Source: Escherichia phage vB_EcoP-R1 | Reading direction: 5' to 3' (one strand) | DNA length: 40,875 nt | Sequence record: OQ703102.1 | Shown here: in pieces, positions 1 through 40,875 of the stretch | Layout: every line of letters starts with the position of its first letter | Numbering within the stretch: the first letter of the stretch is position 1 | Program-made: the position numbers and the translations under genes | The notes under the pieces: generated by a model | The model's input: only the letters and a program-made list of their open reading frames with translations | Told to the model about the DNA's origin: nothing | The model's database searches: none

Positions 1-394
1 GACGGGTCAGAATGTCGCGATACAGCGCCTGACGGTGCGTTTCGTCATGGGTCGCCAGCACTTCGCCGATCTCTTTATCAATCAGCGGCTTGTCGGCTAA
101 ACCTTGCTGTGCCTGGAAGTCAGCGTGCGACGGTACGCGCATTGAACTCAGGAAGGCGTGTGGATCGTATGGCGCGCCCCAGGTGCGGTGGAAAATCATG
201 CCAAAACGACCGTCGCGCTGACGAGCATAGATACTGCTCTCTTCTTCGCCAATCAGCGAGACATCTGCGCCAATCTGGCGCATATCAGCCTGAATGATTT
301 CCGCCATCGATTTGCTTAACGCATCGGTGCCGATGAACGACAGTTCAATGCGCAGCGGCTGACCATTTTTCTCGCGGATGTCTTTGCCAGCAGG
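1..394 (-). CDS. nikA: Internal fragment of a periplasmic solute-binding protein (SBP family 5, nickel-binding NikA-like); truncated by the window edge and by the junction with phage DNA
   Basis: Minus-strand frame open across 1-394, translating ...PAGKDIREKNGQPLRIELSFIGTDALSK...RDGRFGMIFHRTWGAPYDPHAFLSSMRVPSHADFQAQQGLADKPLIDKEIGEVLATHDETHRQALYRDILTR, which matches my recollection of E. coli NikA; GC-rich enterobacterial codon usage; no start or stop inside the window. The six-frame track misses it because it runs off the window. Confidence 0.55.
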
Positions 395-461
395 ATCCAT
401 ACGGATTGGGCGTACAGCAAGTAATAAACTTTATCTTTCAATTGAATAGGAGAATTATCAT

Positions 462-1511
462 ATGGCAAACGTTCCGGGTCAGAAATTAGGTACAGACCAA
501 GGTAAAGGCAAATCTGGTTCCGACGCTCTGGCGTTGTTCCTGAAGGTCTTTGCTGGCGAAGTCCTGACCGCATTCACTCGCCGCTCTGTAACTGCTGACA
601 AGCATATTGTCCGTACAATTCAGAACGGTAAGTCTGCTCAGTTCCCGGTCATGGGTCGCACCTCTGGTGTGTATCTGGCTCCGGGTGAGCGACTGTCCGA
701 TAAGCGCAAAGGTATCAAACATACCGAGAAAGTAATTACCATTGATGGTCTGCTGACTGCCGATGTGATGATTTTCGACATTGAAGACGCGATGAACCAC
801 TATGACGTGGCTGGTGAGTATTCCAACCAGTTGGGTGAAGCTCTGGCTATCGCTGCTGATGGTGCGGTTCTGGCTGAAACGGCTCTCCTGTGTAACCTCC
901 CAGCTGCATCCAACGAGAACATCGCGGGTCTGGGCACTGCGTCCGTACTGGAAGTTGGTAAGAAAGCTGACCTCAACACCCCGGCTAAACTGGGCGAAGC
1001 AATCATCGGTCAACTGACCATCGCTCGTGCGAAGCTGACCTCCAACTACGTTCCTGCTGGCGACCGTTATTTCTATACAACGCCGGACAACTACTCTGCA
1101 ATCCTCGCGGCTCTGATGCCGAACGCTGCTAACTATGCTGCGCTGATTGATCCAGAGACTGGTAACATCCGTAACGTGATGGGCTTCGTTGTTGTTGAAG
1201 TTCCGCATCTGGTACAGGGTGGCGCTGGTGAGACCCGTGGTGCCGATGGTATCTCTATCGCTTCCGGCCAGAAACACGCATTCCCAGCAACTGCTACTGG
1301 CGACGTTAAAGTTGCTATGGATAACGTTGTGGGTCTGTTCTCTCACCGTTCTGCTGTGGGTACTGTGAAGCTGCGTGACTTGGCGCTGGAACGTGACCGT
1401 GACGTCGATGCTCAGGGCGACCTGATTGTCGGTAAATACGCTATGGGTCACGGTGGTCTGCGTCCTGAAGCGGCGGGTGCGCTGGTTTTCACAGCAGCGT
1501 CAGCGGTCTAA
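462..1511 (+). CDS. 10A: Major capsid protein (T7 gp10A homolog)
   Basis: 349 aa; MANVPGQKLGTDQGKGK...LALFLKVFAGEVLTAF...KHTEKVITIDGLLTADV...DIEDAMNHYDV...KYAMGHGGLRPEAAG closely parallels T7 gp10A; RBS AGGAG 8-10 nt upstream. Confidence 0.95.
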   Translation: MANVPGQKLGTDQGKGKSGSDALALFLKVFAGEVLTAFTRRSVTADKHIVRTIQNGKSAQFPVMGRTSGVYLAPGERLSDKRKGIKHTEKVITIDGLLTADVMIFDIEDAMNHYDVAGEYSNQLGEALAIAADGAVLAETALLCNLPAASNENIAGLGTASVLEVGKKADLNTPAKLGEAIIGQLTIARAKLTSNYVPAGDRYFYTTPDNYSAILAALMPNAANYAALIDPETGNIRNVMGFVVVEVPHLVQGGAGETRGADGISIASGQKHAFPATATGDVKVAMDNVVGLFSHRSAVGTVKLRDLALERDRDVDAQGDLIVGKYAMGHGGLRPEAAGALVFTAASAV

Positions 1512-1774
1512 CGACCTTTAAGGCCCTCTCTACAGAGGGTCCTACCTTAGAGACGTACAGTTCTACGGTGGGGACCAGCCTGAAGGTTGACTTACCTGAG
1601 CTTTCAGACGTGACCGATTGGTCGCTGCTTGAGGTGACTACGCCTGATGGTGTTAGCTACTCCCGTAGAACCAACAGTCTCTACTTCAAGGCCACCTCTG
1701 GCGCGGAAGGTCTGGTGATTGTTGGATATGACGGTTCGCCTGTGCGTTCCTTCAACGTATCTTTCACAAACTAA
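462..1774 (+). CDS. 10B: Minor capsid protein 10B, predicted product of a programmed -1 ribosomal frameshift near the end of 10A
   Basis: Slippery heptamer G GTT TTC at 1484-1490, 20 nt before the 10A stop; the -1 frame is open from 1490 to a TAA at 1772-1774 (the track ORF 1568..1774 is part of this frame). Same arrangement as T7 10A/10B. Confidence 0.45.
1484..1490 (+). promoter_or_regulatory. Putative -1 frameshift slippery site GGTTTTC
   Basis: Heptamer identical to the T7 gene 10 frameshift site as I recall it; sits at the end of the capsid gene with an open -1 frame downstream. Confidence 0.45.
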
Positions 1775-1780
1775 TTGAAA

Positions 1781-1817
1781 CCCCTTGGGTGCCTTCGGGT
1801 GCTTGAGGGGTTTTTTG
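1781..1817 (+). terminator. Phage RNAP terminator (T-phi-like) after the capsid gene
   Basis: CCCCTTGGGTGCCTTCGGGTGCTTGAGGGG hairpin followed by TTTTTTG; position and sequence resemble T7 T-phi. Confidence 0.6.
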
Positions 1818-1933
1818 CTTAAAGTGAGGATGATTATGTTTTACTTACTTACAGCCTTGGGACTATTTGTTAGTTTCTGGGCGATTATATTATTAACCGG
1901 ACCATGCAGTCCTTACGACAGATAGGAGGGAGT

Positions 1934-2500
1934 ATGGCTCAATACATTCCACTGAATGCTAACGATGACTTAGACGCTATCAACGATATGTTAGCTGCTA
2001 TCGGTGAACCAGCAGTCCTACAGCTTGACGAGGGTAACGCTGACGTCTCTAACGCTCAACGTATCCTACATCGTGTCAATCGTCAGGTCCAAGCTAAAGG
2101 CTGGAACTTTAACATCAACGAAGCTGCTGTCCTGACACCTGATGTCCAAGACAATAGGATTCGATTCTTGCCGTCATACCTTCGTGTAATGACCGCTGGG
2201 GCCACCAGCTACTACAGCAACATGGGTGGATACCTGTACGACCTGTCCACTCAGTCGACCACTTTCACCGACCCTATCACGGTAGAGCTTGTGGAGATGA
2301 AGCCATTCTCAGAGATGCCTGTGGTCTTCAGGGACTACATCGTCACTAAAGCTAGCCGTGAGTTCAACGCTAAGTTCTTCGGTAGCCCAGAGTCTGAATT
2401 GTACCTTCGTGAGCAGGAAGCAGAACTCTATCAGCAGGTCATGGAATACGAGATGGATACTGGTCGCTACAACATGATGTCCGACATTGGGAGAGACTAA
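1934..2500 (+). CDS. 11: Tail tubular protein A (gp11 homolog)
   Basis: Start chosen at ATG 1934 behind GGAGGGAG (track ORF starts earlier at 1904); MAQYIPLNAND...AAIGEP...NAQRILHRVNRQVQAKGWNFNINE...VTKASREFNAKFFGSPE...MEYEMD parallels T7 gp11; position after capsid. Confidence 0.85.
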   Translation: MAQYIPLNANDDLDAINDMLAAIGEPAVLQLDEGNADVSNAQRILHRVNRQVQAKGWNFNINEAAVLTPDVQDNRIRFLPSYLRVMTAGATSYYSNMGGYLYDLSTQSTTFTDPITVELVEMKPFSEMPVVFRDYIVTKASREFNAKFFGSPESELYLREQEAELYQQVMEYEMDTGRYNMMSDIGRD

Positions 2501-4857
2501 TGCCACTAATTACTCAATCAATCAAGAACCTTAAGGGTGGCATTAGCCAACAGCCTGACATACTGAGGTTCTCAGACCAAGGCGAGTCACAGGTTAACTG
2601 CTGGTCATCAGAGAGTGATGGCCTCCAGAAGCGTCCACCTACAGTCTTCAAGCGACGTCTTAACATCGACGTTGGGAGCCACCCTAAGTTCCACCTGATT
2701 AACCGTGATGAGCAGGAGCAGTATTACATCGTGTTCAACGGGTCCAACATTCAGGTAGTTGACTTGAGCGGTAATCAATACTCAGTTTCCGGTGCGGTAG
2801 ACTACGTTAAGTCGCCCAACCCGCGAGATTACATCCGTGTCGTTACCGTTGCAGACTATACGTTCATCGTGAACCGTAAGGTTGTCGTTAAAGGTGGAAG
2901 CGAGACATCACACTCTGGTTATAATCGTAAAGCTCGTGCTTTAATTAACCTGCGTGGTGGACAGTATGGTCGCACCCTTAAGGTAGGAATCAACGGAGGA
3001 GTTAAGGTTGAGCATAAGTTGCCAGCAGGTAATGATGCCGAGAATGACCCTCCTAAGGTGGATGCTCAGGCCATCGGTGCAGCTCTGAGAGACCTTCTTG
3101 TTGCTGCTTACCCTACCTTCACGTTCGACCTTGGGTCTGGATTCCTGTTAATCACTGCCCCTTCAGGGACTGACATTAACTCAGTGGAGACGGAGGATGG
3201 CTACGCTAACCAGCTAATCAGTCCAGTACTCGACACGGTGCAAACAATCTCTAAGTTGCCTCTTGCGGCTCCAAATGGGTACATCATTAAGATTCAAGGG
3301 GAGACCAACAGTAGCGCCGATGAATATTACGTGATGTATGACTCCAACACTAAGACGTGGAAGGAGACAGTAGAGCCGGGAGTGGTCACTGGGTTTGATA
3401 ACACCACAATGCCTCATGCTCTGGTTAGACAATCTGACGGCTCCTTTGAGTTCAAGACTCTGGACTGGTCTAAGCGTGGTGCTGGTAATGATGACACAAA
3501 CCCTATGCCTAGCTTCGTGGATGCCACGATTAACGATGTGTTCTTCTACAGGAATAGGCTGGGGTTCTTGTCAGGCGAGAACGTGATCATGAGCCGTTCA
3601 GCAAGCTACTTTGCGTTCTTCCCTAAGAGTGTGGCGACACTGAGTGATGATGATCCTATTGACGTAGCTGTAAGTCACCCTAGAATCTCAATCCTTAAGT
3701 ATGCCGTTCCGTTTAGCGAGCAGCTACTACTTTGGTCGGATGAGGTTCAGTTCGTGATGACAAGCTCTGGGGTCCTTACCTCGAAGTCTATCCAGCTTGA
3801 TGTAGGCTCAGAGTTTGCCCTAGGTGACAATGCCAGACCGTTCGCTGTAGGACGCTCAGTCTTCTTCTCAGCTCCTCGTGGGTCATTCACCAGTATTAAG
3901 CGATACTTCGCTGTAGCTGATGTATCTGATGTGAAGGATGCAGATGATACAACAGGTCACGTACTGTCCTACATCCCTAACGGGGTGTTTGATATTCAAG
4001 GTACAGGTACTGAGAACTACATCTGCGTCAACTCTACAGGTGCATACAACCGAATCTACATCTACAAGTTCTTGTTTAAGGACGGAGTACAGCTTCAAGC
4101 CTCTTGGTCACACTGGGAGTTCCCTAAAGATGATAAGATTCTGGCGTCTGCTTCTATTGGCTCTACCATGTTCATCGTTCGTCAGCACCAAGGAGGGGTA
4201 GACATTGAGCACCTTAAGTTCATCAAGGAGGCAACTGACTTCCCCTCAGAGCCATATAGACTACACATTGACTCCAAGGTGTCTATGGTAATTCCAATTG
4301 GCTCATATAATGCTGACACCTATAAGACTACGGTTGACATTGGTGCTGCTTATGGTGGCAACGCTCCGTCTCCCGGTCGGTACTATCTGATTGACAGTCA
4401 GGGTGCTTATGTGGACCTTGGGGACTTGTCCAGTATCTCTACTGTGATTACCCTCAACGGCGATTGGTCAGGACGTACAGTGTTCATCGGACGGCCCTAT
4501 CTGATGTCCTACAAGTTCTCACGGTTCCTGATTAAGATTGAAGATGATAGTGGCACTCAGTCTGAAGACACTGGTCGTCTACAGCTTCGTCGGGCTTGGG
4601 TCAACTACAAGGACACTGGCGCTCTGAGACTCATTGTCAGAAACGGTGAGCGGGAGTTCGTGAATACCTTCAACGGGTACACCCTTGGTCAGCAAACCAT
4701 CGGTACTACAAACATTGGTGACGGGCAGTATCGATTCGCTATGAATGGTAACGCATTAACCACGAGTCTAACCTTAGAGTCCGACTATCCTACCCCAGTG
4801 TCCATCGTTGGGTGTGGCTGGGAGGCATCATACGCTAAGAAAGCTCGTTCAGTCTAA
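2500..4857 (+). CDS. 12: Tail tubular protein B (gp12 homolog)
   Basis: 785 aa (T7 gp12 is 794 aa); conserved position; start overlaps gene 11 stop (TAATG). Confidence 0.88.
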   Translation: MPLITQSIKNLKGGISQQPDILRFSDQGESQVNCWSSESDGLQKRPPTVFKRRLNIDVGSHPKFHLINRDEQEQYYIVFNGSNIQVVDLSGNQYSVSGAVDYVKSPNPRDYIRVVTVADYTFIVNRKVVVKGGSETSHSGYNRKARALINLRGGQYGRTLKVGINGGVKVEHKLPAGNDAENDPPKVDAQAIGAALRDLLVAAYPTFTFDLGSGFLLITAPSGTDINSVETEDGYANQLISPVLDTVQTISKLPLAAPNGYIIKIQGETNSSADEYYVMYDSNTKTWKETVEPGVVTGFDNTTMPHALVRQSDGSFEFKTLDWSKRGAGNDDTNPMPSFVDATINDVFFYRNRLGFLSGENVIMSRSASYFAFFPKSVATLSDDDPIDVAVSHPRISILKYAVPFSEQLLLWSDEVQFVMTSSGVLTSKSIQLDVGSEFALGDNARPFAVGRSVFFSAPRGSFTSIKRYFAVADVSDVKDADDTTGHVLSYIPNGVFDIQGTGTENYICVNSTGAYNRIYIYKFLFKDGVQLQASWSHWEFPKDDKILASASIGSTMFIVRQHQGGVDIEHLKFIKEATDFPSEPYRLHIDSKVSMVIPIGSYNADTYKTTVDIGAAYGGNAPSPGRYYLIDSQGAYVDLGDLSSISTVITLNGDWSGRTVFIGRPYLMSYKFSRFLIKIEDDSGTQSEDTGRLQLRRAWVNYKDTGALRLIVRNGEREFVNTFNGYTLGQQTIGTTNIGDGQYRFAMNGNALTTSLTLESDYPTPVSIVGCGWEASYAKKARSV

Positions 4858-4933: not shown

Positions 4934-5404
4934 ATGTATATTCGCAAGGCTACGGAACCGGATGTCCACTACTTTCTGTGGCATCTTTCAGCAGATGATG
5001 TTAATGAGTGCAAAGCAAACTACGGGTCAACCGTTGGTCTCTCTGAAAGACTGCTTAAGCACCTATCTCCGTCATCTGTGGTTTTAACGAACGGTGTAGG
5101 CGAAGTGTTTGCCTATGGTGGAAACCAAGGGGATAACGTATGGTTCTTGACTTCAGGTCTGGTCAACAAGCTGAGACCTAAAGAGAAGCGAGAGTTCATA
5201 AAGCGTATCTCTGAGTACAGGGACTTAATGTTAGACCAATACGGGACCATCTGGAACTACGTGTGGTCAGGCAATAAGTCTCACATTAAATTCTTGAAGT
5301 TGATTGGGGCTAAGTTCCATGATGATTGGACTATCAGCCCGGTAACTGGTGAGCGTTTTCAATTATTCACTATCTCTAAGGAGGACGTATGTGTGAACCC
5401 GTAA
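4934..5404 (+). CDS. 13: Internal virion protein A (gp13 position)
   Basis: 156 aa ORF directly after the phi13-like promoter and before gp14; assigned by position and size. Confidence 0.6.
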   Translation: MYIRKATEPDVHYFLWHLSADDVNECKANYGSTVGLSERLLKHLSPSSVVLTNGVGEVFAYGGNQGDNVWFLTSGLVNKLRPKEKREFIKRISEYRDLMLDQYGTIWNYVWSGNKSHIKFLKLIGAKFHDDWTISPVTGERFQLFTISKEDVCVNP

Positions 5405-5976
5405 GTATCGGTCTAGGAATCATGGCTGTAGCCGGGGCCACTATGTCCGCATCCCAACAGGCCAAGGCAGAAGGTGCAGCAATTGACGCTCAGAACCGAC
5501 AGGCTCAGGAAATGGTTAAGCAGATGAACTACTCTGACGCCAACCTGAAGATGCAGGAGCGAGACCTGAAGGAGCAGCAGATGGCTGAACTGACAGAGAC
5601 CACTCTAAACGGTATCCGCAATCAGGGGATGGTCCGAGCTGCAGTGGCTGAGTCAGGTCTGGAAGGTAACTCTATGGACAGGATTGAACGTCAGGTCGAA
5701 GGAGATACAGTCAAGGAGCGAGCAGGGATTACCGAAAGTTACAACCGCGACTATGCGGCTATCTTCGGGAACCGTATCGCCAACATTGAGAACACCAAGT
5801 CTGCTATCCGTGGTCAAGGTAAAATCATCAAGACCAGTCCACTGGCCCATGCACTTAATGTTGCTAACGCCGGGATGCAAGGTTACGCTGCTGGTGAATC
5901 AATGTCTGGGTCATCCAGCTCTGGCGGTTCTGCACCAATTAGGGCTGCTAAAGGCACACCTACAGGTCATAGCTAA
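5389..5976 (+). CDS. 14: Internal virion protein B (gp14 homolog)
   Basis: 195 aa; MCEPVSIGLGIM...SMDRIERQVEGD...NRDYAAIFGN...GTPTGHS resembles T7 gp14 (196 aa); RBS AAGGAGGA. Confidence 0.8.
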   Translation: MCEPVSIGLGIMAVAGATMSASQQAKAEGAAIDAQNRQAQEMVKQMNYSDANLKMQERDLKEQQMAELTETTLNGIRNQGMVRAAVAESGLEGNSMDRIERQVEGDTVKERAGITESYNRDYAAIFGNRIANIENTKSAIRGQGKIIKTSPLAHALNVANAGMQGYAAGESMSGSSSSGGSAPIRAAKGTPTGHS

Positions 5977-5987: not shown

Positions 5988-8270
5988 ATGGCTAGTAATA
6001 TTGAATCAGCTCTGGCTAATCGGACTATGGGTCGCGGCAGAGCGCCGGGTAAAACTATCGCCGTAAACTATCAAGCAGCCAGCGTTCAGGCTCCGACTGG
6101 TGACTCCGGTCTGGCTCGTGCGTTAACCAACTTCGTTGAGTCTGGGACTGGATTGTACAAGCAGTTCAAGGACGATGAAAAGACACGGGCCGACGAGAGG
6201 TCTAACGAGATTATCCGTAAGCTGACACCTCAGCAAAGACGTGAGGCTATCCAGAACGGCACATTGCTGTATCAGGATGACCCTTACGCTATGGAAGCAC
6301 TTCGAGTCAAGACTGGTCGTAATGCTGCCTTTGCTGTAGACGACGAGATTAACGTTAAGATTCAGAACGGTGAGTTCCGTACACGTCAGGACATGGAAGA
6401 GTATCGCCACCAGCGACTTCAGGATGCCGCTAAGTCCTATGCTGAAGAGGCAGGTATTAACCCTACCGACGAGTTCTTCCAGCGTGGCTTCAACGATAAC
6501 ATCACGGACAGAAACATCGCTATCTATGGGTCTTTCAATAAGTATTTCAGCAAGCAGTCTGAAGAGACAGCAATGTTGAACACTCGTATTGAGATGAACT
6601 CATTCCTGAACGATGGCGACCTGATGCGTTCACCTGAGTCTGGCAAGACATTCATGGCCTACCTTCGGGATGGATTGACGACTGCTGCTATACCTTCGGA
6701 CCAGAGAGCACGGGAGGTCATTACCCAGACGGTCCGTGACGCAATCCAGAAGTCCGGCGGCTCAAACTTCCTACAGCAAGTACGAGGCGAGAGAATCACC
6801 CTTAACGGTGTAGATGCTACAGTCGAAGAGATTGTAGGACCGGATGTCTTCAACGCTGCTATTGTTGAGGCACAAGGTACTGAGTATAAACTGGTGGCTA
6901 AGTATCAGGAAGACTTGTCGTTAGGCGTTCAGTCTGCGATTCTTCAGGATGACCCAACCATCGGTCTGGCCCAGATTCAGAAACTCAAGGAGCAGAACAA
7001 CCTGCTTCAGCCGGGTGAAGAACTAACGCCTCAGCGTCAGATGCTTATTAACGCCGAAGCCAGCTTACTGGAAGCGGTCAAGCGTAAGTCTGCTGAACAG
7101 GCAAAGGAGAACACTAAGTTAATCCAGACCCAGAACAAGCAACTGGTCATCGACCAAGTTTATCAGCGACGTCTGGCTGGGGACAACGTGTCCACCAACT
7201 ATGAGGACCTTCCGGTCTCTGAAGCTACAGGAGAGTTCAAGCGTTCAGACATGAACAACTATGCGTCTGCTAAGCTACAGCAGATTGACCAGATGGACAT
7301 CCCTGAGGCTGCTAAGGACGCACAGAAGGTTGCATTATTAAGAGCTGACACTAACAACGGTCCGTTCCGTAATGCCTTCCAGACGCTGACTCAGGACGCT
7401 GCTGGTGAGTGGCAAGCTGCGGTCATCCGTGGGAAGTACGACCCAGACAAGATGCAACGCTTCGAATCTCTTCGTCGTGCCTACACTCAGGACCCTTCAA
7501 GTTTTTCTGCTCTGTATCCTGACCAAGCTCAGTTGTTCTCTACGTTCGACCAGATGGACAAGATGGGTCTGGACCCTCAGACGATGATTGAAGCTGATAA
7601 GCAAGCTGCAAGTCAAAGCCGTGAGATGCGCATGGAGTCAGACAAGGCGTGGCAGGAGTTGAAGAATGACTCTCGGAATAAGGACCTTTCGCGTCTTCCT
7701 ACGTCTCTGGACGCAAGTGCTCGTAAGGTCTGGGACTCATGGTACTATCGTACAGGTAACGCTGACGCTGCAACTCAGCAGACTCAACGCTGGCTGAATG
7801 AGAACACCGTAACGTTCCAGTCTGAAGGTTCTGACGGTAAGTCCATCGGCATGGTGTCCAAGCACCAGCTTATGGTCGGGGATAACCCAGAGTCGTGGCA
7901 GGTGGGTCGAGACATTATCGACACCGCTCGTAAGCAGCTCATTAAGGCCAACCCTTGGGTAGTGAACTCTCAGTTGTCCGTTGTTGAACAGAACGGCTCT
8001 ATCTTCCTCCAAGACGCTACAGGGACTATTCGTATTCGGTACGATAAAGAACTTGTAGGTAAACTCTACCGCGAACAACAGCAGAAGGCACAAGATGCCG
8101 CATACGCTCAGGCAGAACGTGACGCTAACAAGCGAGCGCGTATCGTCGGGACTAAAGCTGCTGGTGACAAACGTCGAGCTGACCGAGAGGCCAACATCGA
8201 GAAGCGCGGTGGGATGTACAATGACGTCTCACTGGAGGGTATCGCAAAAGTACTAATTGGTAAGGAGTAA
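5988..8270 (+). CDS. 15: Internal virion protein C (gp15 homolog)
   Basis: 760 aa (T7 gp15 747 aa); conserved position between gp14 and gp16; strong RBS. Confidence 0.8.
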   Translation: MASNIESALANRTMGRGRAPGKTIAVNYQAASVQAPTGDSGLARALTNFVESGTGLYKQFKDDEKTRADERSNEIIRKLTPQQRREAIQNGTLLYQDDPYAMEALRVKTGRNAAFAVDDEINVKIQNGEFRTRQDMEEYRHQRLQDAAKSYAEEAGINPTDEFFQRGFNDNITDRNIAIYGSFNKYFSKQSEETAMLNTRIEMNSFLNDGDLMRSPESGKTFMAYLRDGLTTAAIPSDQRAREVITQTVRDAIQKSGGSNFLQQVRGERITLNGVDATVEEIVGPDVFNAAIVEAQGTEYKLVAKYQEDLSLGVQSAILQDDPTIGLAQIQKLKEQNNLLQPGEELTPQRQMLINAEASLLEAVKRKSAEQAKENTKLIQTQNKQLVIDQVYQRRLAGDNVSTNYEDLPVSEATGEFKRSDMNNYASAKLQQIDQMDIPEAAKDAQKVALLRADTNNGPFRNAFQTLTQDAAGEWQAAVIRGKYDPDKMQRFESLRRAYTQDPSSFSALYPDQAQLFSTFDQMDKMGLDPQTMIEADKQAASQSREMRMESDKAWQELKNDSRNKDLSRLPTSLDASARKVWDSWYYRTGNADAATQQTQRWLNENTVTFQSEGSDGKSIGMVSKHQLMVGDNPESWQVGRDIIDTARKQLIKANPWVVNSQLSVVEQNGSIFLQDATGTIRIRYDKELVGKLYREQQQKAQDAAYAQAERDANKRARIVGTKAAGDKRRADREANIEKRGGMYNDVSLEGIAKVLIGKE

Positions 8271-8274
8271 CATA

Positions 8275-29666: not shown

Positions 29667-31370
<1,704 letters not shown>

Positions 31371-31381
31371 GGAGGAGTACA

Positions 31382-31546
31382 TTGCTAAGAAAACTTAAAG
31401 CTCGCTACCATCGGTTCATGTACAAATGGTGGAGTGATGAAGCAACCTGCCTGTCCAACATTCTGGGAGACCAGAGGTTCGACTCTAAGGCTTGGAAGAA
31501 GGCTAACCGGAAGTTTATGTATCACTTCTTGCGTACAGACTTCTAG
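31382..31546 (+). CDS. Hypothetical small protein (gp4.3 position; start uncertain)
   Basis: Track ORF 31349..31546 overlaps the gene 4 end; a TTG at 31382 follows RBS AAGGAGG; an ATG at 31419 is the alternative. Confidence 0.35.
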
Positions 31547-31549
31547 GTC

Positions 31550-31592
31550 TAGACTCAAGGTCATTCACATCGAGTGGCCTTTATGATTAGAC
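31550..31592 (+). promoter_or_regulatory. RNase III-type processing hairpin (R4.7-like)
   Basis: TAGACTCAAGGTCATTCACATCGAGTGGCCTTTATGATTAG; third near-identical copy. Confidence 0.5.
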
Positions 31593-31614
31593 TTATAACT
31601 AAAGGAGAAGCAAT

Positions 31615-32046
31615 ATGAGGACTTGTAGTAGATGTGGCTCTACAAAGGAGTCCACTGAGTTCAGGAAGACAAATGGGTGGTGCATATCCTGTGTTCGTGA
31701 GGATAATAGGTCGCGATATCATCGAAACAAAGGTACAGAGGCCGGTGAGGCGCATCGCCTATCTGCCCGTAAGTCTTGGCTTAAGAAAGCCTATGGTCTC
31801 ACACTTGAGGAATATGACACTATGTTCGATAGTCAAAAGGGCAGATGCGCTATATGCTCAGACATTATCTTCAAGCATGGGTCTATTGAGAGTAAGAATA
31901 ATGTAGCCCACGTTGACCATTGCCATGACTCAGGTATTGTTAGGGGATTGCTATGTGGTACATGTAATAGCGCACTTGGTAAGTTCGGTGACAAGGTAGC
32001 CGTGCTTAGGGCTGCTATAACGTACTTGGAGAAATATAATGTTTAA
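31615..32046 (+). CDS. HNH endonuclease, endonuclease VII-type (putative homing endonuclease)
   Basis: 143 aa; Cys-rich N-terminus (CSRCGS...CISC) plus CAICSD...HVDHCHDSGIVRGLLCGTCNSALG, the typical endonuclease-VII/HNH zinc-binding core. Confidence 0.8.
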   Translation: MRTCSRCGSTKESTEFRKTNGWCISCVREDNRSRYHRNKGTEAGEAHRLSARKSWLKKAYGLTLEEYDTMFDSQKGRCAICSDIIFKHGSIESKNNVAHVDHCHDSGIVRGLLCGTCNSALGKFGDKVAVLRAAITYLEKYNV

Positions 32047-34210
32047 TCTCAACTCATTCTATGGCACAGATATAGAGACTGACGGTCTACTAGACACTGT
32101 GTCACAGTTCCATTGTGGTGTTATCATTAACGCTGGAACTCAGGCTACTGAGAAATATGGTGTTGCCCCTATGACTGGGCTGACAGGTGGATTCAAAGAG
32201 TACATAGACCGCATAGAATCTATTATGGCATCCACTGACGGTATGCTGGTTCTGCACAATGGTGTGAACTATGATATACCAGCCTTGAAAATACTGAAGA
32301 AGAAATACTTTGGTAAGAACCTAAATGTGAATAAGGGTCGAATTATTGATACCTTGGTACTTGGTCGCTTGATGTATCCAAACATTAAGTTCTCAGACAT
32401 GGGCGCGGTGAAAGCTGGTCGTCTGCCACCTAAGATGATGGGACGCCAGTCTCTTGAGGCTTGGGGCTATCGTCTCGGTGAGATGAAAGGTGAGTACAAA
32501 CACGATTACGTTGCCAAGTGCAAGGCTGAAGGTATCGAATATAAGGCTGGGGACGAATGGTTGTTCCCGTCTCAGGAGATGCTGGACTATAACGTTCAAG
32601 ACGTTGTGGTCACACTGGCGTTGTTCAAGAAGTTCCTGACTGACAAGTATTACTTCCAGTCTGAACAGTTTGCTTTCGACCAGATTTATGCGTTGCGTCT
32701 GGAACATGATGCTGCGTGGACCTGTGCGAAGATGGAGCGTAACGGCTATCCGATGAACACCGAGATGGTCGAAGGCTTATATCGTGAACTCACCGTCAAA
32801 CGTGCAGAGTTGTTGGACAAGCTGCGTTCGACTTTCGGTAGCTGGTATGCACCAAAGGGAGGCAAGGAGTTCTTCAAGCACCCACGGACAGGCAAGGACC
32901 TTCCGAAGTATCCGCGAGTCGTGTATCCTAGGGTCGGGTCAGTATTCAAGAAGCCGAAGAACAAAGCTCAACGCTTAGGTCTGGAGCCTTGCGAGTTCGA
33001 CTCACGAGACACGATGGAAGGAGCACCGTTCACGCCAATCACTTACGTTGAGTTTAATCCGGGAAGCGGAGACCACTTAGCGAAAGTCTTGATGGAGCGT
33101 GGTTGGGAGCCTGTGGACTTCACTGACACTGGGAAACCTGTAGTAGATGACGAGACGTTAGAACACGTTAAGCTACCAGACGCAGAGGCTCAGGCTTGCG
33201 TAGAGCTGGTCCGTGAGTATCTGGTAGTCCAGAAGCGCATCGGTCAGGCGGCTGAAGGTAAGAACGCATGGTTGAAACTTGTAGGTCCAGACGGACGTAT
33301 GCACGGTTCAATCAACCCATGCGGTGCAGTAACAGGACGTGCGACTCATAGTTCACCAAACATGGCTCAGGTCCCTGCTAACGGTGCTCCGTATGGTGAG
33401 ATTTGCCGTGGTGCTTTCGGTGCAGCTTGGAACAAGACGGATGGTAAGCCAGACCCTTGGATTCAAGTGGGTGTGGATGCTTCAGGTCTTGAGCTTCGTT
33501 GTCTGGGGAACCGAGCAGCTCCGTTTGATGGTGGTGCCTATGCGAAGACTGTGGTCGAAGGTGACATCCACTGGGCCAACGCAGTAAACGCTGGTTTAGC
33601 ACCTAACGTCCCACGCGATAAATCGAGCCACGACCATGATGCTTTCCGTAACAACGCTAAGACGTTCATCTATGCGTTCCTGTATGGTGCAGGGGCCGCT
33701 AAGATTGGACTGATAGTCGGCGGTGGTAAGAAGGAAGGTTCAGCTCTCATGAAGAAATTCATTGAGGGTACACCAGCCATCAAAGACCTCAGGGAAGCTG
33801 TGAGTAATACGTTAATCTCAGACTCTAAGTGGGTAGATGGTGAGAACATCGTTAAGTGGAAACGCCGTTGGCTGCGTGGACTTGACGGTCGCCGTATCCA
33901 CATCCGGTCGCCACACTCAGCACTGAACGCCTTACTTCAAGGTGACGGTGCGGTAGTCTGTAAGCACTGGATGGTACTGACGGAGAAGAAACTTGAGGAA
34001 GCTGGCTACGGTAATGGCTGGGATGGTGACTTTGCGCTAATGGCTTGGATTCACGACGAATTGCAGATTGCGTGTCGTACTCAGGAGATTGCCGAAGAAG
34101 TCGTCCGTATTGCACAAGAAGCAATGCGTGAGGTAGGACGTTTTTATAACTTCAAGTGTGATCTTGATACGGAGGGTAAGATTGGACCAACGTGGAAAGA
34201 GTGTCACTGA
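32039..34210 (+). CDS. 5: DNA polymerase, family A (gp5 homolog)
   Basis: 723 aa; ...SQFHCGVII, LEAWGYRLGEMKGEYK, DYNVQDVVVT, HPRTGK.LPKYPR, FKKPKNKAQR, GAVTGRATHS.PN.AQ.P, DASGLELRCLG, KTFIYAFLYGAG, KRRWL.GLDGR..H.RSPH.ALN.LLQ, GWDGDFA.MAW.HDE.Q parallel T7 gp5. Confidence 0.97.
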   Translation: MFNLNSFYGTDIETDGLLDTVSQFHCGVIINAGTQATEKYGVAPMTGLTGGFKEYIDRIESIMASTDGMLVLHNGVNYDIPALKILKKKYFGKNLNVNKGRIIDTLVLGRLMYPNIKFSDMGAVKAGRLPPKMMGRQSLEAWGYRLGEMKGEYKHDYVAKCKAEGIEYKAGDEWLFPSQEMLDYNVQDVVVTLALFKKFLTDKYYFQSEQFAFDQIYALRLEHDAAWTCAKMERNGYPMNTEMVEGLYRELTVKRAELLDKLRSTFGSWYAPKGGKEFFKHPRTGKDLPKYPRVVYPRVGSVFKKPKNKAQRLGLEPCEFDSRDTMEGAPFTPITYVEFNPGSGDHLAKVLMERGWEPVDFTDTGKPVVDDETLEHVKLPDAEAQACVELVREYLVVQKRIGQAAEGKNAWLKLVGPDGRMHGSINPCGAVTGRATHSSPNMAQVPANGAPYGEICRGAFGAAWNKTDGKPDPWIQVGVDASGLELRCLGNRAAPFDGGAYAKTVVEGDIHWANAVNAGLAPNVPRDKSSHDHDAFRNNAKTFIYAFLYGAGAAKIGLIVGGGKKEGSALMKKFIEGTPAIKDLREAVSNTLISDSKWVDGENIVKWKRRWLRGLDGRRIHIRSPHSALNALLQGDGAVVCKHWMVLTEKKLEEAGYGNGWDGDFALMAWIHDELQIACRTQEIAEEVVRIAQEAMREVGRFYNFKCDLDTEGKIGPTWKECH

Positions 34211-34241
34211 CCCTCGAACCAAGACCTTGCGCTTCCACACA

Positions 34242-34535
34242 ATGCCTACTGGATGTATCGTCTGCGTGTCCCACAAGAGGAACCAAGATGGATACTTCCG
34301 GTATTCTATGGGAAGCTACAGGAAGGGCAACAAGTTCGCCTTCATGTTTCACAGATGGGTGTGGGAACAGAAGCGCGGACCTATACCGGATGGCTATGAG
34401 ATAGACCATTTGTGTTTGAATCGTGGGTGCTGTAACGTAGAACATCTACAATGTATTCCAAAGCGTGATCACGTCATCAAGACGAACCGTGAGCGCAAAC
34501 TTATTAAGAAGGAGAAGACTAATGGCTATTACTAA
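34242..34535 (+). CDS. HNH endonuclease (gene 5.3 position)
   Basis: 97 aa from ATG 34242 (track ORF 34158..34535 starts inside DNAP); ...GYFRYSMGSYRKGNKFAFMFHRWVWEQKRGPIPDGYEIDHLCLNRGCCNVEHLQCIPKRDH...N is a classic HNH core. Confidence 0.75.
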   Translation: MPTGCIVCVSHKRNQDGYFRYSMGSYRKGNKFAFMFHRWVWEQKRGPIPDGYEIDHLCLNRGCCNVEHLQCIPKRDHVIKTNRERKLIKKEKTNGYY

Positions 34536-34806
34536 ACGTATTCGTGTAAGTTTCGACCTGAAGATGGTTGTCAGCTCAAAGGAAGAAGATACCATGTGTC
34601 GCCAACTGGCTGAGATGACTAAAGCCTACGCTGAGGGTGAGAAGCTGGATGGACTTCAGGTGGCTATGGTCAAAGCAGCAATCGAGTCAGGCCCTGAGTC
34701 TGCCCTTGAAATTGCCCTCAAGAAGACCATCAAGGAGGAGCTGGTAGACGCCTTTGGTGATGACCAGTTCGGAGTATCTAACCTGCGATTCGAGGTCAAG
34801 CAATGA
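34522..34806 (+). CDS. 5.5: gp5.5-position protein
   Basis: 94 aa from ATG 34522 (MAITKRIRVSFDLK...); N-terminus resembles T7 gp5.5 as I recall it; start overlaps the HNH gene end. Confidence 0.55.
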   Translation: MAITKRIRVSFDLKMVVSSKEEDTMCRQLAEMTKAYAEGEKLDGLQVAMVKAAIESGPESALEIALKKTIKEELVDAFGDDQFGVSNLRFEVKQ

Positions 34807-35012
34807 GTGAATACTTACGGGTCCTAGCGGCCCTTAAGTCCTGCCCGAAGACCTTCCAGTCTAACTATGTGCGCAACAACGCTGCACTTGTGGCTGAGGC
34901 TGCGAGTCGTGGACATCTAAGCTGCCTGTCTATGGATGGGCGTAACAACGGTGCGTGGGAAATTACCGCTGCTGGCACCAAGTTCCTGAACCAACACGGA
35001 GGCTGTCTATGA
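34803..35012 (+). CDS. 5.7: gp5.7-position protein
   Basis: 69 aa, same length as T7 gp5.7; ...KSCPKTFQSNYVRNNAALVAEAASRGH...; assigned by position and size. Confidence 0.6.
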   Translation: MSEYLRVLAALKSCPKTFQSNYVRNNAALVAEAASRGHLSCLSMDGRNNGAWEITAAGTKFLNQHGGCL

Positions 35013-35458
35013 AGATACCTGAAAGTCTGAAAGAGCTGGTCCTTGACATGGGTGAGTGCGAGAAGGAGCACCGCAAGTACGCTGAGTTCTACGCATCTTG
35101 GTCATACACCTTGACAGAGAAGGACGTTGAGTCATACACCGAGTCTCCCGCTGAGGCTTATGAGTGGCGTCCATTCATCGGACTGACCATCGTAGCTAGC
35201 GGTATGTGGGATGACAGATACGGTTCAGAGGTAAACGACTGGGACGTGTGCCGCCAAGTTGAGAAGGAGACTGAGATGTCTTCAAACTTCTGGAACCTGA
35301 TGTCACACCTAAACTCAGAGGACAACGACAAGGCCCATGAGTTCGCCAACAAATGGCTGAAGCCTGAGGTGACTCTCGAACGTATAGAGGAGCCGAAAGT
35401 GCCCTTGATGCCATATGTAGTCGCTATGGCTACAGGAGGTCTGGACGATGGGTGCTGA
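35009..35458 (+). CDS. Acidic hypothetical protein at the gene 5.9 position (much longer than T7 gp5.9)
   Basis: 149 aa from ATG 35009 (overlaps the 5.7 stop as ATGA); Glu/Asp-rich; T7 gp5.9 is 52 aa. Confidence 0.5.
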   Translation: MKIPESLKELVLDMGECEKEHRKYAEFYASWSYTLTEKDVESYTESPAEAYEWRPFIGLTIVASGMWDDRYGSEVNDWDVCRQVEKETEMSSNFWNLMSHLNSEDNDKAHEFANKWLKPEVTLERIEEPKVPLMPYVVAMATGGLDDGC

Positions 35459-36317
35459 GAAGAAGATAGCTCTTGTTCTTGATGGCGATTACCTAGTATT
35501 CTCTTCTATGGCTGCTGCCGAGGACGAGACAGACTGGGGTGATGACATCTGGACCCTTATCTGCGACCATGAGAAGGCTCGCCGTATCCTTGAGAACACC
35601 ATCGCTGAAATCGTTAAGAAGCGCAAGGCGTGGAAAGACGCTAAGATTGTGATGTGCTTCACCGACGATTACAACTGGCGTAAGGACGTACTTCCTACCT
35701 ATAAGGCTAACCGTAAGGGTTCTCGCAAGCCTGTAGGTTACAAGAAGTTCGTAGCCGAAGTGATGGCTGACCCACGGTTCAACAGCTTCCTGCGTCCCAC
35801 GCTTGAGGGTGATGACTGTATGGGTATCATCGGGACCAGACCTCAGATTGTCGGATGTGACCATGCGGTTCTGGTGTCCTGTGATAAGGACTTCAAGACC
35901 ATACCGAACTGTGAGTTCTTCTGGTTGACCACTGGTGAAATCCTGAGTCATACGACTGCTGAGGCAGACTACTGGCACATGGAGCAGACCATCAAGGGCG
36001 ATACTACAGATGGCTACGGCGGGATTCCGGGGATGGGTGAGGACACCACTCGTGCGTTCCTTGACGAGCCGTACTACTTCGTTCAGGAGAGCCGTGAGCT
36101 TAAGACTGGTAAGAACAAAGGCCAGATTAAGACTGAGTGGAAGAAGTATCCGAAGCGTGAAGACATGACGCTGTGGGACTGCATGGTTACACTGGCTGCT
36201 AAGGCTGGCATGACCGAGGAGGAACTTCTGGTCCAAGCTCAGGTCGCTCGTATTTGTCGAGCCTCCGACTACGACCCTAAGTCCAAGGAGGTCATCCTAT
36301 GGACACCATCCATGTAA
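35448..36317 (+). CDS. 6: 5-prime to 3-prime exonuclease (gp6 homolog)
   Basis: 289 aa; ...WRKDVLPTYKANRK...KPVGY..F......LEGDD.MG.I......VSCDKDFKTIPNCEFFW.TTG.IL...DYWH...QTIKGD.TDGY.GI.G...KTGKNKGQ...TLWDC....AKAGMTEE parallel T7 gp6. Confidence 0.92.
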   Translation: MGAEKKIALVLDGDYLVFSSMAAAEDETDWGDDIWTLICDHEKARRILENTIAEIVKKRKAWKDAKIVMCFTDDYNWRKDVLPTYKANRKGSRKPVGYKKFVAEVMADPRFNSFLRPTLEGDDCMGIIGTRPQIVGCDHAVLVSCDKDFKTIPNCEFFWLTTGEILSHTTAEADYWHMEQTIKGDTTDGYGGIPGMGEDTTRAFLDEPYYFVQESRELKTGKNKGQIKTEWKKYPKREDMTLWDCMVTLAAKAGMTEEELLVQAQVARICRASDYDPKSKEVILWTPSM

Positions 36318-36391
36318 TTTACTGGGTCGGACTTCTGGCCCTTTACTGCATGTACAAGTGGTTCGGGTCGAACAACCGCCCTAAACACTGA
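36299..36391 (+). CDS. Putative small hydrophobic peptide (gene 6.3 position)
   Basis: 30 aa MDTIHVIYWVGLLALYCMYKWFGSNNRPKH; RBS AAGGAGG 7 nt upstream; overlaps the 3-prime end of gene 6. Confidence 0.3.
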   Translation: MDTIHVIYWVGLLALYCMYKWFGSNNRPKH

Positions 36392-37448: not shown

Positions 37449-37689
37449 ATCAATCAGTAAGGCCTTCAAGAAAGTGGTGAAAAGTACGTTAGGGACCGTT
37501 GGTCTTGGCTCTGATGACGCGCCTAAGGTTGTTGAGGCTAAGACCCCAGCAGCACCAGTGGAAGTACCGAACGACAAAGTGGAGGATGTGGATACTGAAG
37601 CAACCGCATCTGATGAGAAGAAAGTGAAGCGTTCCGGTAAGCGTAGCCTTCAGGTCTCTCGCACCTCTGGTGGCGGTATTTCTATATGA
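37441..37689 (+). CDS. 7.3: gp7.3-like tail/virion protein
   Basis: 82 aa, Lys/Ala/Val-rich, ends ...RSLQVSRTSGGGISI (T7 gp7.3 ends similarly as I recall); GTG start. Confidence 0.65.
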   Translation: MGKSISKAFKKVVKSTLGTVGLGSDDAPKVVEAKTPAAPVEVPNDKVEDVDTEATASDEKKVKRSGKRSLQVSRTSGGGISI

Positions 37690-38102
37690 CAGGGTGCATC
37701 GAGTGGAAGTGGGCCAAATCCTCAGCAGGATACGGGCAGAAGCGTATAGACGGTAAGTTAGTGTATATGCACCGACTCGCTTACGCCGATGCACATGGGC
37801 CAATACCAGACGGAATGCTCGTCCGTCATAAGTGTGATAATCCAGCATGTTTTAACGTAAACCACTTAGAGTTAGGAACTCAGCGTGATAACATGCAGGA
37901 CGCCTCAAAGCGTGGTCGAGTCAATAAAACCAAAATGGCTAGAGGTGAGGACCAAGGGTTATCGGTTTTAACAGAAGACCTTGTTCGAGAAATCCGCAAG
38001 TCAACAGTAGGTTGTACAACACTGGCTCGTGAGCTGGGCGTTAGCAAGTCTACAGTTTTGCGGGTTCGCCAAGGTAAAACATGGAGGCACGTAGATGGCT
38101 GA
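37686..38102 (+). CDS. HNH endonuclease with C-terminal helix-turn-helix (gene 7.7 position)
   Basis: 138 aa; ...GYGQKRIDGKLVYMHRLAYADAHGPIPDGMLVRHKCDNPACFNVNHLELGTQRDN... HNH core; C-terminal ...TLARELGVSKSTVLRVRQGKTW is HTH-like. Confidence 0.75.
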   Translation: MTGCIEWKWAKSSAGYGQKRIDGKLVYMHRLAYADAHGPIPDGMLVRHKCDNPACFNVNHLELGTQRDNMQDASKRGRVNKTKMARGEDQGLSVLTEDLVREIRKSTVGCTTLARELGVSKSTVLRVRQGKTWRHVDG

Positions 38103-39663
38103 ACGTGAAGGATTTGCCGCTGAAGGCGCGAAGTCAGTTTATGATAGGCTGAAGAACGGACGACAACCTTACGAGACCAGAGCACAGAACTGCGCTGCCG
38201 TGACCATACCGTCGCTATTTCCGAAGGAATCTGATAACTCCTCGACGGAATATTCAACTCCGTGGCAAGCTGTAGGTGCTCGCTGTTTGAACAACTTGGC
38301 TGCAAAGCTGATGTTGGCATTATTCCCTCAGTCACCGTGGATGCGACTGACAGTCTCCGAATATGAGGCCAAGACCTTGAGTCAGGACTCAGAGGCTGCT
38401 GCTCGTGTTGACGAAGGGCTGGCTATGGTCGAGCGTGTGTTGATGGCCTACATGGAGACCAACAGTTTCCGTGTGCCATTGTTCGAAGCTCTGAAGCAGC
38501 TTATCGTCTCCGGTAACTGTCTGCTTTACATTCCAGAGCCTGAACAGGGTACTTACAGTCCTATGCGAATGTACCGCTTAGTGTCATACGTTGTTCAACG
38601 TGATGCTTTCGGTAATATCTTGCAGATTGTGACTCTCGACAAGGTAGCGTTTAGTGCTCTACCGGAAGACGTGAAGTCACAACTCAACGCAGACGACTAT
38701 GAGCCTGACACAGAGCTGGAAGTTTATACGCACATCTACCGTCAAGACGACGAGTATCTACGTTATGAGGAAGTGGAAGGCATTGAGGTAGCAGGGACCG
38801 ATGGTTCCTACCCACTGACTGCATGTCCATACATCCCGGTACGAATGGTTCGACTGGATGGTGAAGACTATGGTCGTTCTTACTGCGAGGAGTATCTGGG
38901 TGACCTGAACTCGCTGGAGACGATTACAGAAGCTATCACCAAAATGGCTAAGGTAGCCTCCAAGGTGGTGGGCCTCGTTAACCCGAACGGTATCACGCAA
39001 CCTCGTCGGCTGAACAAGGCGGCTACAGGTGAGTTCGTTGCCGGTCGCGTTGAGGACATCAACTTCCTGCAACTGACTAAGGGTCAGGACTTTACGATTG
39101 CCAAGTCGGTGGCTGACGCTATCGAGCAACGTTTAGGCTGGGCCTTCCTTCTTAATAGTGCTGTTCAGCGCAACGCCGAGCGAGTCACTGCTGAAGAGAT
39201 TCGTTATGTTGCTGGCGAACTGGAGGCGACCTTAGGTGGCGTGTACTCAGTACAATCCCAAGAGCTTCAGTTACCTATCGTCCGTGTGCTGATGAACCAA
39301 CTTCAGTCTGCTGGCATGATTCCTGACCTTCCGAAAGAAGCGGTAGAGCCTACTGTCTCCACTGGTCTGGAAGCGTTAGGTCGTGGTCAGGACTTGGAGA
39401 AGCTAACTCAGGCGGTTAACATGATGACTGGTCTTCAGCCGCTATCTCAGGACCCGGACATCAACTTGCCGACCCTTAAGCTACGACTCCTGAACGCTCT
39501 GGGTATCGACACCGCCGGCCTTCTGCTGACTCAGGACGAGAAGATGCAACGTATTGCTGAACAATCCGCTCAAGGAGCTGTGGTCAACGGTGCGTCTGCT
39601 GCTGGTGCTAACATGGGTGCTGCTGTAGGTCAGGGAGCTGGTGAGGACATGGCTCAAGCCTAA
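38095..39663 (+). CDS. 8: Portal / head-to-tail connector protein (gp8 homolog)
   Basis: 522 aa (T7 gp8 536 aa); conserved position between 7.7 and scaffold. Confidence 0.93.
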   Translation: MAEREGFAAEGAKSVYDRLKNGRQPYETRAQNCAAVTIPSLFPKESDNSSTEYSTPWQAVGARCLNNLAAKLMLALFPQSPWMRLTVSEYEAKTLSQDSEAAARVDEGLAMVERVLMAYMETNSFRVPLFEALKQLIVSGNCLLYIPEPEQGTYSPMRMYRLVSYVVQRDAFGNILQIVTLDKVAFSALPEDVKSQLNADDYEPDTELEVYTHIYRQDDEYLRYEEVEGIEVAGTDGSYPLTACPYIPVRMVRLDGEDYGRSYCEEYLGDLNSLETITEAITKMAKVASKVVGLVNPNGITQPRRLNKAATGEFVAGRVEDINFLQLTKGQDFTIAKSVADAIEQRLGWAFLLNSAVQRNAERVTAEEIRYVAGELEATLGGVYSVQSQELQLPIVRVLMNQLQSAGMIPDLPKEAVEPTVSTGLEALGRGQDLEKLTQAVNMMTGLQPLSQDPDINLPTLKLRLLNALGIDTAGLLLTQDEKMQRIAEQSAQGAVVNGASAAGANMGAAVGQGAGEDMAQA

Positions 39664-39681
39664 ACTATCACTATAGGAACT
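39659..39681 (+). promoter_or_regulatory. Phage RNAP promoter (phi9-like)
   Basis: CCTAAACTATCACTATAGGAACT overlapping the portal stop; +1 G at 39676. Confidence 0.8.
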
Positions 39682-39760
39682 TAGACAAGATTCACAAAGC
39701 ATTAGGCCGGGTGAGACTCCCGGTCGGTTCCTATCATCAACTTAAAAGGAGAATGACTCA

Positions 39761-40605
39761 ATGTCTCAATCAGTTTATGCCGAGTTCGGCGTTAGCTCTA
39801 ATGCAATCACTGGTTCCGTTGAGGACCTGAACGAACACCAGAAGTCTATGCTTGAACAGGACGTAGCTGTTCGTGATGGCGACGACGCTATTACTTTCAA
39901 GCAACTGGAAGCCGAAAACGAAGAGGCGACCGAAGAAGACGAGAACGTCGAAGAGACTGAAGGTGAAGAAGACCACGAGTCCGATGACGAAGAGTCTGAG
40001 ACCGATGGTGAGCAGCCTGAGTTCATCGAACTGGGTGATGCACCAAAAGAGCTGACCGAAAGTGTCACCGCTCTGGATGAAAACGAAGCTGCATTCGACG
40101 ACATGGTGTCTTCTGCTGTAGAAGCTGGCAAGGTCACTGCTGATGAAATTACCGCTATCAAGGCTGAATACGCCAAGGACGGTAAGCTGTCTGACGCATC
40201 CTACGCTAAGTTGCAGGAAGCAGGTTACACCAAGCGTTTCGTAGATTCGTTTGTCCGTGGTCAGGAAGCTCTTGCTGAACAGTATGCTGCTGGTGTGGTT
40301 CGCTACGCTGGTGGTGCTGAACAGTTTAATCGCATCCTGTCACACCTTGAGTCCAACGACCCGTCAACTCGTGAAGCACTGGAAGCTGCTATCGTTCGTA
40401 AGGACATTGCGACTACCAAAGCTCTGCTGAATCTGGCTGGCAAGACTCTGGGTAAAGCTGTAGGTGTTAAACCTCAGCGAACCATCACCACTCAGGCTAA
40501 ACCTGTGGTCGCACCTAAGGCTCCTCAGACCGAAGCATTCAGCTCCAAGGCTGACATGATTAAGGCTATGAGTGACCCGCGATACCTGCGTGACGCTAAG
40601 TACAC
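39761..40605 (+). CDS. 9: Scaffolding protein (gp9 homolog), 3-prime truncated and fused in-frame to non-phage sequence
   Basis: MSQSVYAEFGVSSNAITGSVEDL...VRDGDDAI..., acidic EEDE-rich region, ...FVRGQEALAEQY...AMSDPRY parallel T7 gp9; no stop codon, and after about 40605 the translation no longer looks like gp9. Confidence 0.85.
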
Positions 40606-40843
40606 GGTGTTTAGTTTTCAGGCTGGCGCACTGGCAGGTGTGCAAATTGTTTCACAAGCTGCAAAACGCAGTGCCGATGGCGAGCTGCTGTTAGCGACCC
40701 GTAACCGCTTGAGTAGTGTTGTTCCACTGTCGCCAGACGCCTGGCAAATGTTGAGCGCGCCGTTGCGCCAGCCGGGCATTGTGGCTTTGCGGGAATATTT
40801 ACGCCAGCGTCCCCCCGCCTGCATACGACCACTCAACCAGGTC
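40606..40843 (+). other. Unidentified non-phage, GC-rich coding-like fragment (probable bacterial chromosomal DNA) joined in-frame to gene 9
   Basis: Open + frame ...LAGVQIVSQAAKRSADGELLLATRNRLSSVVPLSPDAWQMLSAPLRQPGIVALREYLRQRP... with GC content clearly higher than the phage; I cannot assign it from sequence alone. Confidence 0.3.
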
Positions 40844-40875
40844 AGATCGGAAGAGCGTCGTGTAGGGAAAGAGTG
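40844..40875 (+). other. Illumina TruSeq adapter sequence (AGATCGGAAGAGCGTCGTGTAGGGAAAGAGTG)
   Basis: Exact 32-nt match to the standard Illumina adapter read-through sequence at the extreme 3-prime end of the window. Confidence 0.95.

Follow-up and report, generated by a model that had tools for sequence, protein, structure and literature searches.

The closest described relatives of the phage treated here belong to the genus Kayfunavirus (Autographiviridae, Studiervirinae), with K1F (NC_007456) as type member and with the phages ZG49 (NC_047777) and IME177 (MZ398247). Kayfunaviruses with a K5 lyase gene have been reported earlier (PMC8614997), and ZG49 has been published with a 401-bp terminal repeat (PMC5786669). 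We analysed the sequence record of Escherichia phage vB_EcoP-R1 (OQ703102.1), whose full stretch of 40,875 nucleotides is called the window in the following. Its phage block, positions 396-40606, is collinear with Kayfunavirus genomes and shows 92-96% identity to K1F, ZG49 and IME177. The block is bordered by fragments of two E. coli genes, nikA and yehQ, and the window ends in an Illumina adapter. We are confident that the window represents a chimera of library preparation and assembly, built around an ordinary, nearly complete Kayfunavirus genome. It is artefactual, and the phage is neither integrated nor engineered.

Composition of the window and the two host-phage joins

The borders of the phage block and the region of the genome ends are made up of the following features.

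1-394, minus strand: part of the E. coli gene nikA (nickel ABC transporter substrate-binding protein), which runs antisense to the phage genes and is encoded on the minus strand of its locus
395, no strand: untemplated single base A at the left join, in place of C in E. coli and G in the phage relatives
396-461, plus strand: 3' part of the gene 10 leader with ribosome-binding site, from alignment to ZG49, IME177 and K1F
18356-18533, plus strand: direct terminal repeat, single collapsed copy of 178 bp, from K1F mapping
39761-40606, plus strand: gene 9, scaffolding protein, truncated (Pfam Phage_T7_Capsid, profile positions 2-178 of 188)
40607, no strand: untemplated single base G at the right join, where the phage relatives have A and E. 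coli SK1144 has C
40608-40843, plus strand: fragment of E. coli yehQ (SWIM zinc-finger protein), in sense orientation, from locus annotation
40844-40875, plus strand: Illumina TruSeq universal-adapter read-through of 32 nt, read directly from the sequence

The nikA flank shows 99.7% identity with all top E. coli chromosomes and was found in every complete E. coli genome searched (5426/5426). Compared with E. coli SK1144 it carries a single mismatch, as does the yehQ flank over its 236 nt. In the SK1144 chromosome, the nikA flank is located at ~272 kb (plus strand) and the yehQ flank at ~1761 kb (minus strand), with ~1.49 Mb between them. The GC content amounts to 0.56 and 0.58 in the flanks and to 0.50 in the phage block. 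An earlier first-pass annotation, made from the letters of the window, had described borders of higher-GC, non-phage DNA, and these are now identified as E. coli nikA and yehQ. It had also seen an Illumina adapter at the end. The last 32 nt are indeed TruSeq read-through, AGATCGGAAGAGCGTCGTGTAGGGAAAGAGTG, which we take to be the standard TruSeq universal-adapter trimming sequence. This is its sole copy in the window, and E. coli carries other bases past the yehQ piece at that point. Because the adapter follows directly after 236 nt, the yehQ end rests on a short-insert read-through fragment and possibly on very few reads.

Both host fragments share the same best-matching E. coli genomes, SK1144, SA186 and 4/4. 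For this reason, the nikA and yehQ fragments probably stem from one E. coli strain. Some of these three genomes presumably belong to K5-capsule ST73 lineages, which would fit the K5 lyase tailspike of the phage.

Between the flanks, the map opens in the gene 10 leader and continues with genes 10-19 up to the genome ends, followed by genes 0.3 and 1-8 and finally by gene 9. Pfam matches and the collinearity with Kayfunavirus genomes bear out the earlier description of T7-type core genes in canonical order on a map that begins in the gene 10 leader and ends in gene 9. The genome had also been called complete, which does not hold. Between 40606 and 396, the window lacks 95, 96 and 110 bp in comparison with ZG49, IME177 and K1F, respectively. 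The missing segment comprises the last 12 codons of gene 9 (282 of the 294 codons are retained, counted on ZG49 gp9), the promoter phi10 and, from the gene 10 leader, the initial ~33 nt. It is expected to contain ...ATGGAAGTTCGCGC...TAAACTATCACTATAGG...CTTCAG. Alignment of the leader remnant starts at ZG49 21820, IME177 28625 and K1F 21070. In ZG49 coordinates, one break point is 39 nt upstream of phi10 and the other 33 nt downstream.

At the left join, nikA stops at 394 (...CAGCAGG) and the phage begins at 396 (TCCATACGG...). At the right join, the phage stops at 40606 (...GTACACG) and yehQ begins at 40608. No bases are common to host and phage at either join. Given this lack of homology and the one untemplated base at each join, the joins must already have been present in individual reads or fragments. 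We infer that they most likely arose in vitro, by ligation or template switching in library preparation. None of the matching phage records spans the joins (0 of 215 and 0 of 199). The left join string was not found in viral, genome and metagenome contig collections, and the right join string was not found in the viral collection, the only one scanned for it.

The first-pass annotation had likewise read the window as an assembly artefact, with circularisation through the collapsed terminal repeat and with the 23-bp promoter repeat and chimeric host reads as the cause of the joins. The chimera and the circularisation stand, the role of the promoter repeat does not. An assembler join via the 23-nt repeat would retain the repeat at the join. 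The contig does not retain it, and this mechanism is therefore unsupported: phi10 is absent there, the breaks lie 39 and 33 nt off and the joined ends share no sequence. The contig also runs undisturbed through the identical 23-mer at the phi17 promoter, positions 12155-12177.

The right join leaves the frame of gene 9 open through the yehQ fragment and the adapter up to the end of the window (39761-40875), and automatic annotation would predict a gp9-YehQ fusion protein here. The yehQ piece reads in sense, with its own frame in phase with gene 9, for which the chance is 1 in 6. A functional gp9-YehQ fusion was considered and rejected, as this frame coincidence has no other support.

Origin of the joins and alternative explanations

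The course of events that we favour starts from Illumina sequencing of a lytic K1F-type phage with a K5 lyase tailspike, in a sample with a small amount of host E. coli DNA and with reads left without adapter trimming. The two terminal-repeat copies, from the linear genome or from concatemers, collapsed, and the phage was assembled as a circle. This circle was then opened by the assembler in the gene 9/10 intergenic region, with a loss of ~95-110 bp, and each free end was extended into a rare chimeric library fragment. The left fragment consists of a nikA piece and the gene 10 leader, the right one of the gene 9 end and the 236-bp yehQ piece, followed by adapter. Blunt or A-tail ligation, or template switching, could have made both joins during library preparation. 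Local variation in the phage population or assembler heuristics are possible causes for the opening at gene 9/10 and for the loss of sequence there in place of a k-mer overlap.

Several points weigh against this explanation. It is drawn from the contig sequence. It gives no reason for a break precisely at gene 9/10; among the promoter repeats, the longest measures 23 nt, and its phi17 copy was passed unbroken. The left flank of 394 nt exceeds one Illumina read, and an overlapping pair or a few host reads are needed to account for it. Further, the left join makes a BamHI site, GGATCC (393-398), composed of GG from nikA, the new A at 395 and TCC from the phage. No other feature of the window could hint at cloning, and we judge the site to be coincidental; some palindromic 6-mer arises at roughly 1-2% of junctions by chance.

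The joins could also be real molecules from infected cells, with a break between genes 9 and 10, resection of ~95 bp and end-joining to degraded host DNA. T7-type phages break up host DNA, and both breaks lie within ~95-110 bp of each other in a 40-kb genome. The lack of homology and the one extra base per join fit end-joining as well, and sequence alone cannot separate joining in the cell from ligation in vitro. However, chimeric reads occur everywhere but become part of a contig only where a broken assembly has free ends. That the two joins lie near each other is therefore expected and needs no biology. The host pieces come from unrelated loci, and the adapter after 236 nt leaves the right join with minimal support. 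Altogether we consider joining in infected cells improbable. A narrower version appears less probable still. Here, the joins would record a site-preferred double-strand break in the gene 9-gene 10 spacer during infection, with the resected ends joined to host fragments, and a nuclease from a host defence system, or else a collision at the strongest late promoter, could be the cause. If true, such a break hotspot would reveal something of illegitimate recombination between phage and host in a T7-like phage that is strictly lytic.

Even more doubtful is an engineered or cloned construct with host DNA set between genes 9 and 10 via the BamHI site. It would account for a GGATCC that lies exactly on the left join and occurs in neither parent. 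Yet only one base of the site is new, unlike sites added by primers, the right join has no restriction site and chance palindromes form at the frequency given above in any case. The supposed inserts are random internal gene fragments, with nikA in antisense. Such a design would remove the C-terminus of the scaffold and phi10, and adapter directly follows the yehQ piece. That a T7-like phage is truly integrated in an E. coli chromosome, or present there as a prophage-like copy, seems next to impossible. Host DNA does stand on either side of the block, and yehQ adjoins yehV and serves as host flank in the record of the Stx1 prophage VT1-Sakai (AP000400, yehQ/yehV), which the yehQ fragment matches too. 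This match is a coincidence of locus and no evidence for integration here. With the flanks ~1.49 Mb apart, and on opposite reference strands, no single insertion site could yield both. An insertion at this place would disrupt gene 9 and delete phi10, the flanks extend over just 394 and 236 nt and the window ends in adapter. As the first-pass annotation had noted, hallmarks of integration are missing: no integrase or recombinase was found among the 30 open reading frames (ORFs) tested, a set that takes in every large ORF as well as the poorly conserved regions, and no att-like or direct repeat common to both block borders was found. The ORFs match structural, replication, homing-endonuclease or unknown phage families, and the remainder of the block, small inserts aside, aligns to lytic Kayfunavirus genomes.

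We return to the chimera of library preparation and assembly. From the positions of the flanks, the adapter and the missing 95-110 bp, it follows that the window is neither a T7-like prophage nor a case of host-gene capture. This is of relevance for quality control, where such contigs could be mistaken for T7-like prophages or for lytic phages that have captured host genes. Before this contig is used, the host ends and the adapter need trimming, the gap from gene 9 over phi10 to gene 10 needs closing and the map needs re-opening at 18356.

Genome ends and terminal repeat

One copy of the terminal repeat had been placed at about 18.1-18.6 kb, and the 178-bp repeat of K1F maps there once, at 18356-18533. 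In K1F, bases 1-178 equal bases 39527-39704; K1F base 1 corresponds to window position 18356 and base 39704 to position 18533. The unique right-end and left-end sequences are continuous through this stretch, in the arrangement of a concatemer junction. The predicted physical ends are 18356 on the left (TCTCACAG...) and 18533 on the right. The left end of T7 also begins with TCTCACAG. The map is rotated because the two terminal-repeat copies collapsed into one, and short-read assemblers give one collapsed repeat copy for this type of phage.

The published repeat of ZG49 (its positions 1-401 and 39891-40291) maps to window 17865-18265, upstream of the K1F-type repeat. We considered it as a marker of the genome ends and rejected it: its place differs from that of the K1F repeat, and it contains a gene 19.5-like ORF (window 17959-18117). 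The K1F ends were used. The 401-bp repeat of ZG49 is probably an assembly overlap and does not seem to mark physical ends.

Gene content and comparison with known phages

By nucleotide alignment, the phage block falls into Kayfunavirus. Genome similarity to three genomes was expressed as identity x coverage, a crude BLAST-based measure. IME177 covers 97% of the block at 96.3% identity (0.936), ZG49 91% at 94.7% (0.857) and K1F 87% at 92.2% (0.805). The value for K1F lies above the genus line of ~70% similarity to the type member. The highest value among the three genomes measured, 0.936 for IME177, lies just under the usual 95% species line; further close records include pO2 and the OX46xxxx Kayfunavirus genomes. 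The block encodes a single-subunit RNA polymerase and has its genes all on one strand in T7 order, as in other Kayfunavirus genomes. In exact-protein look-ups, no identical tailspike, RNA polymerase or capsid protein is on record. The structural, lysis and packaging genes listed below were identified by Pfam searches and by collinearity with annotated K1F.

462-1511, plus strand: gene 10, major capsid protein (Pfam Gp10A-like, 5e-105)
1904-2500, plus strand: gene 11, tail tubular protein A (Pfam Tube, 4e-46)
2500-4857, plus strand: gene 12, tail tubular protein B/nozzle (Pfam Phage_nozzle, E=0)
4934-5404, plus strand: gene 13, internal virion protein (Pfam Phage_T7_Gp13)
5389-5976, plus strand: gene 14, internal virion protein (Pfam T7_gp14)
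5988-8270, plus strand: gene 15, internal virion protein (no Pfam match; 95% nucleotide collinearity with K1F)
8275-12162, plus strand: gene 16, internal virion protein (no Pfam match; 95% nucleotide collinearity with K1F)
12227-14758, plus strand: gene 17, tailspike, with T7 tail-fibre N-terminal adaptor, K5 (heparosan) lyase body and C-terminal S74 chaperone
14863-15057, plus strand: holin (Pfam Phage_holin_2_2)
15054-15317, plus strand: small terminase gp18 (Pfam DNA_Packaging_2)
15419-15859, plus strand: Rz-like 18.5 (collinear with K1F annotation)
15895-17661, plus strand: large terminase gp19 (Pfam Terminase-T7_RNaseH-like)
38095-39663, plus strand: gene 8, portal protein (Pfam Head-tail_con, 3e-97)

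The tailspike matches the Pfam families Phage_T7_tail, Tail_spike_N and Peptidase_S74. Its residues 242-716 align to the KflA K5 lyase (PDB 2x3h, chain 68-542) with 1.8e-281, and over its full length of 843 amino acids (aa) it matches the near-identical tail spike protein PDB 9vvr with 1854 bits. By homology, the tailspike is a K5 lyase depolymerase, in line with the depolymerase that the first-pass annotation had assigned. The phage would thereby be one more K5-capsule-specific Kayfunavirus, which may suit strain collections and holds no new biology. A stretch of the tailspike gene, 13566-14276 (711 bp), aligns to two adjacent places in ZG49, at ~34916-36335, where the ZG49 record annotates two 'tail spike protein' coding sequences. 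This implies a putative tandem duplication or a misassembly in the tailspike region of ZG49.

The early and replication genes are found at the following positions, with the DNA-metabolism block spanning 24663-36317 on the plus strand.

19464-19967, plus strand: gene 0.3, Ocr DNA-mimic anti-restriction protein (Pfam ocr, 9e-29; PHROG 2568 ocr-like, 3e-53)
20911-23592, plus strand: gene 1, single-subunit RNA polymerase (Pfam RNA_pol, 5e-105, and RPOL_N)
24663-25727, plus strand: ligase (Pfam)
27293-27991, plus strand: gp2.5 single-stranded DNA-binding protein (Pfam)
27991-28443, plus strand: endonuclease I (Pfam)
28903-29361, plus strand: amidase (Pfam)
29670-31370, plus strand: primase-helicase (Pfam)
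31615-32046, plus strand: Endonuclease VII-family homing-endonuclease-like ORF between genes 4 and 5 (Pfam Endonuclease_7, 1.4e-24)
32039-34210, plus strand: DNA polymerase (Pfam)
35448-36317, plus strand: exonuclease (Pfam)
37686-38102, plus strand: HNH homing-endonuclease-like ORF at the gene 7.7 position, just before the portal gene (Pfam HNH_3, 1.3e-15)

A gene 0.7 kinase (~350 aa) was not found, as had been stated before; the region 19967-20911 between Ocr and gene 1 holds only ORFs of 50, 124 and 108 aa. The 124- and 108-aa ORFs have no Pfam match and match PHROGs of unknown function only. The IME177 record labels its Ocr homologue (8174-8677) as 'protein kinase'.

K1F-type promoters (..TAAACTATCACTATAGG..) occur 10 times in the window and 11 times each in K1F, ZG49 and IME177, at the same relative places. 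The single promoter lacking in the window is phi10, which falls within the missing segment. The promoter specificity of its own that had been proposed for this phage is thus not supported, the promoter set being the same as in the three relatives. Its description as a distinct T7 relative is overstated as well, in view of the similarity to IME177, of the tailspike, a known K5 lyase, and of K1F, which also has no gene 0.7. One K1F-type promoter, 20821-20838, precedes the RNA polymerase gene by ~73-90 nt. It is conserved across the four genomes, with counterparts at K1F 2476, ZG49 3077 and IME177 9532. To our knowledge, gene 1 of T7 is not preceded by a phage promoter. If this is truly so, the gene 1 promoter would let the polymerase boost its own transcription.

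Both homing-endonuclease-like inserts are absent from ZG49, IME177 and K1F. The full Endonuclease VII-family insert is found at the same site in 4 of 125 matching phage records, and the full HNH insert at the same site in 5 of 177 matching records, for example as gene 7.7 of CR44b. In the early promoter region, a 23-nt direct repeat (22/23 identical; 19095-19117 and 19412-19434) flanks a small ORF, 19122-19376, which belongs to PHROG 10124 of unknown function. IME177 lacks this ORF and has one repeat in place of the two copies. The ORF looks like a small insertion or duplication.

Among known systems, the window agrees with 'circular' assemblies that have a collapsed terminal repeat and contig ends with chimeric sequence or adapter. 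Common to them are the single repeat copy between both genome ends, the adapter read-through at the contig end and the unrelated host fragments joined on without homology. A circular assembly usually has a k-mer overlap at both ends, whereas the window loses ~95-110 bp instead. K1F is collinear genome-wide; its terminal repeat is likewise 178 bp long, and it possesses an Ocr gene and lacks gene 0.7. Its layout of 11 promoters, including the one upstream of gene 1, is that of the window except for phi10. In gene 5, K1F carries an HNH insert that the window lacks, and its tailspike is an endosialidase of ~1064 aa (K1F 32666-35860); window 12986-14798, which encodes the K5 lyase, has no K1F match. 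From the K5 lyase tailspikes 2x3h and 9vvr we find no notable difference, and the T7-type adaptor and the S74 chaperone are the usual modular additions. IME177 is without the Endonuclease VII-type ORF, the HNH ORF and the small early ORF, and it shares the gene order, the 843-aa tailspike locus and the promoter sequences with the window. The phage is a routine K1F-type member with nothing unusual for a Kayfunavirus.

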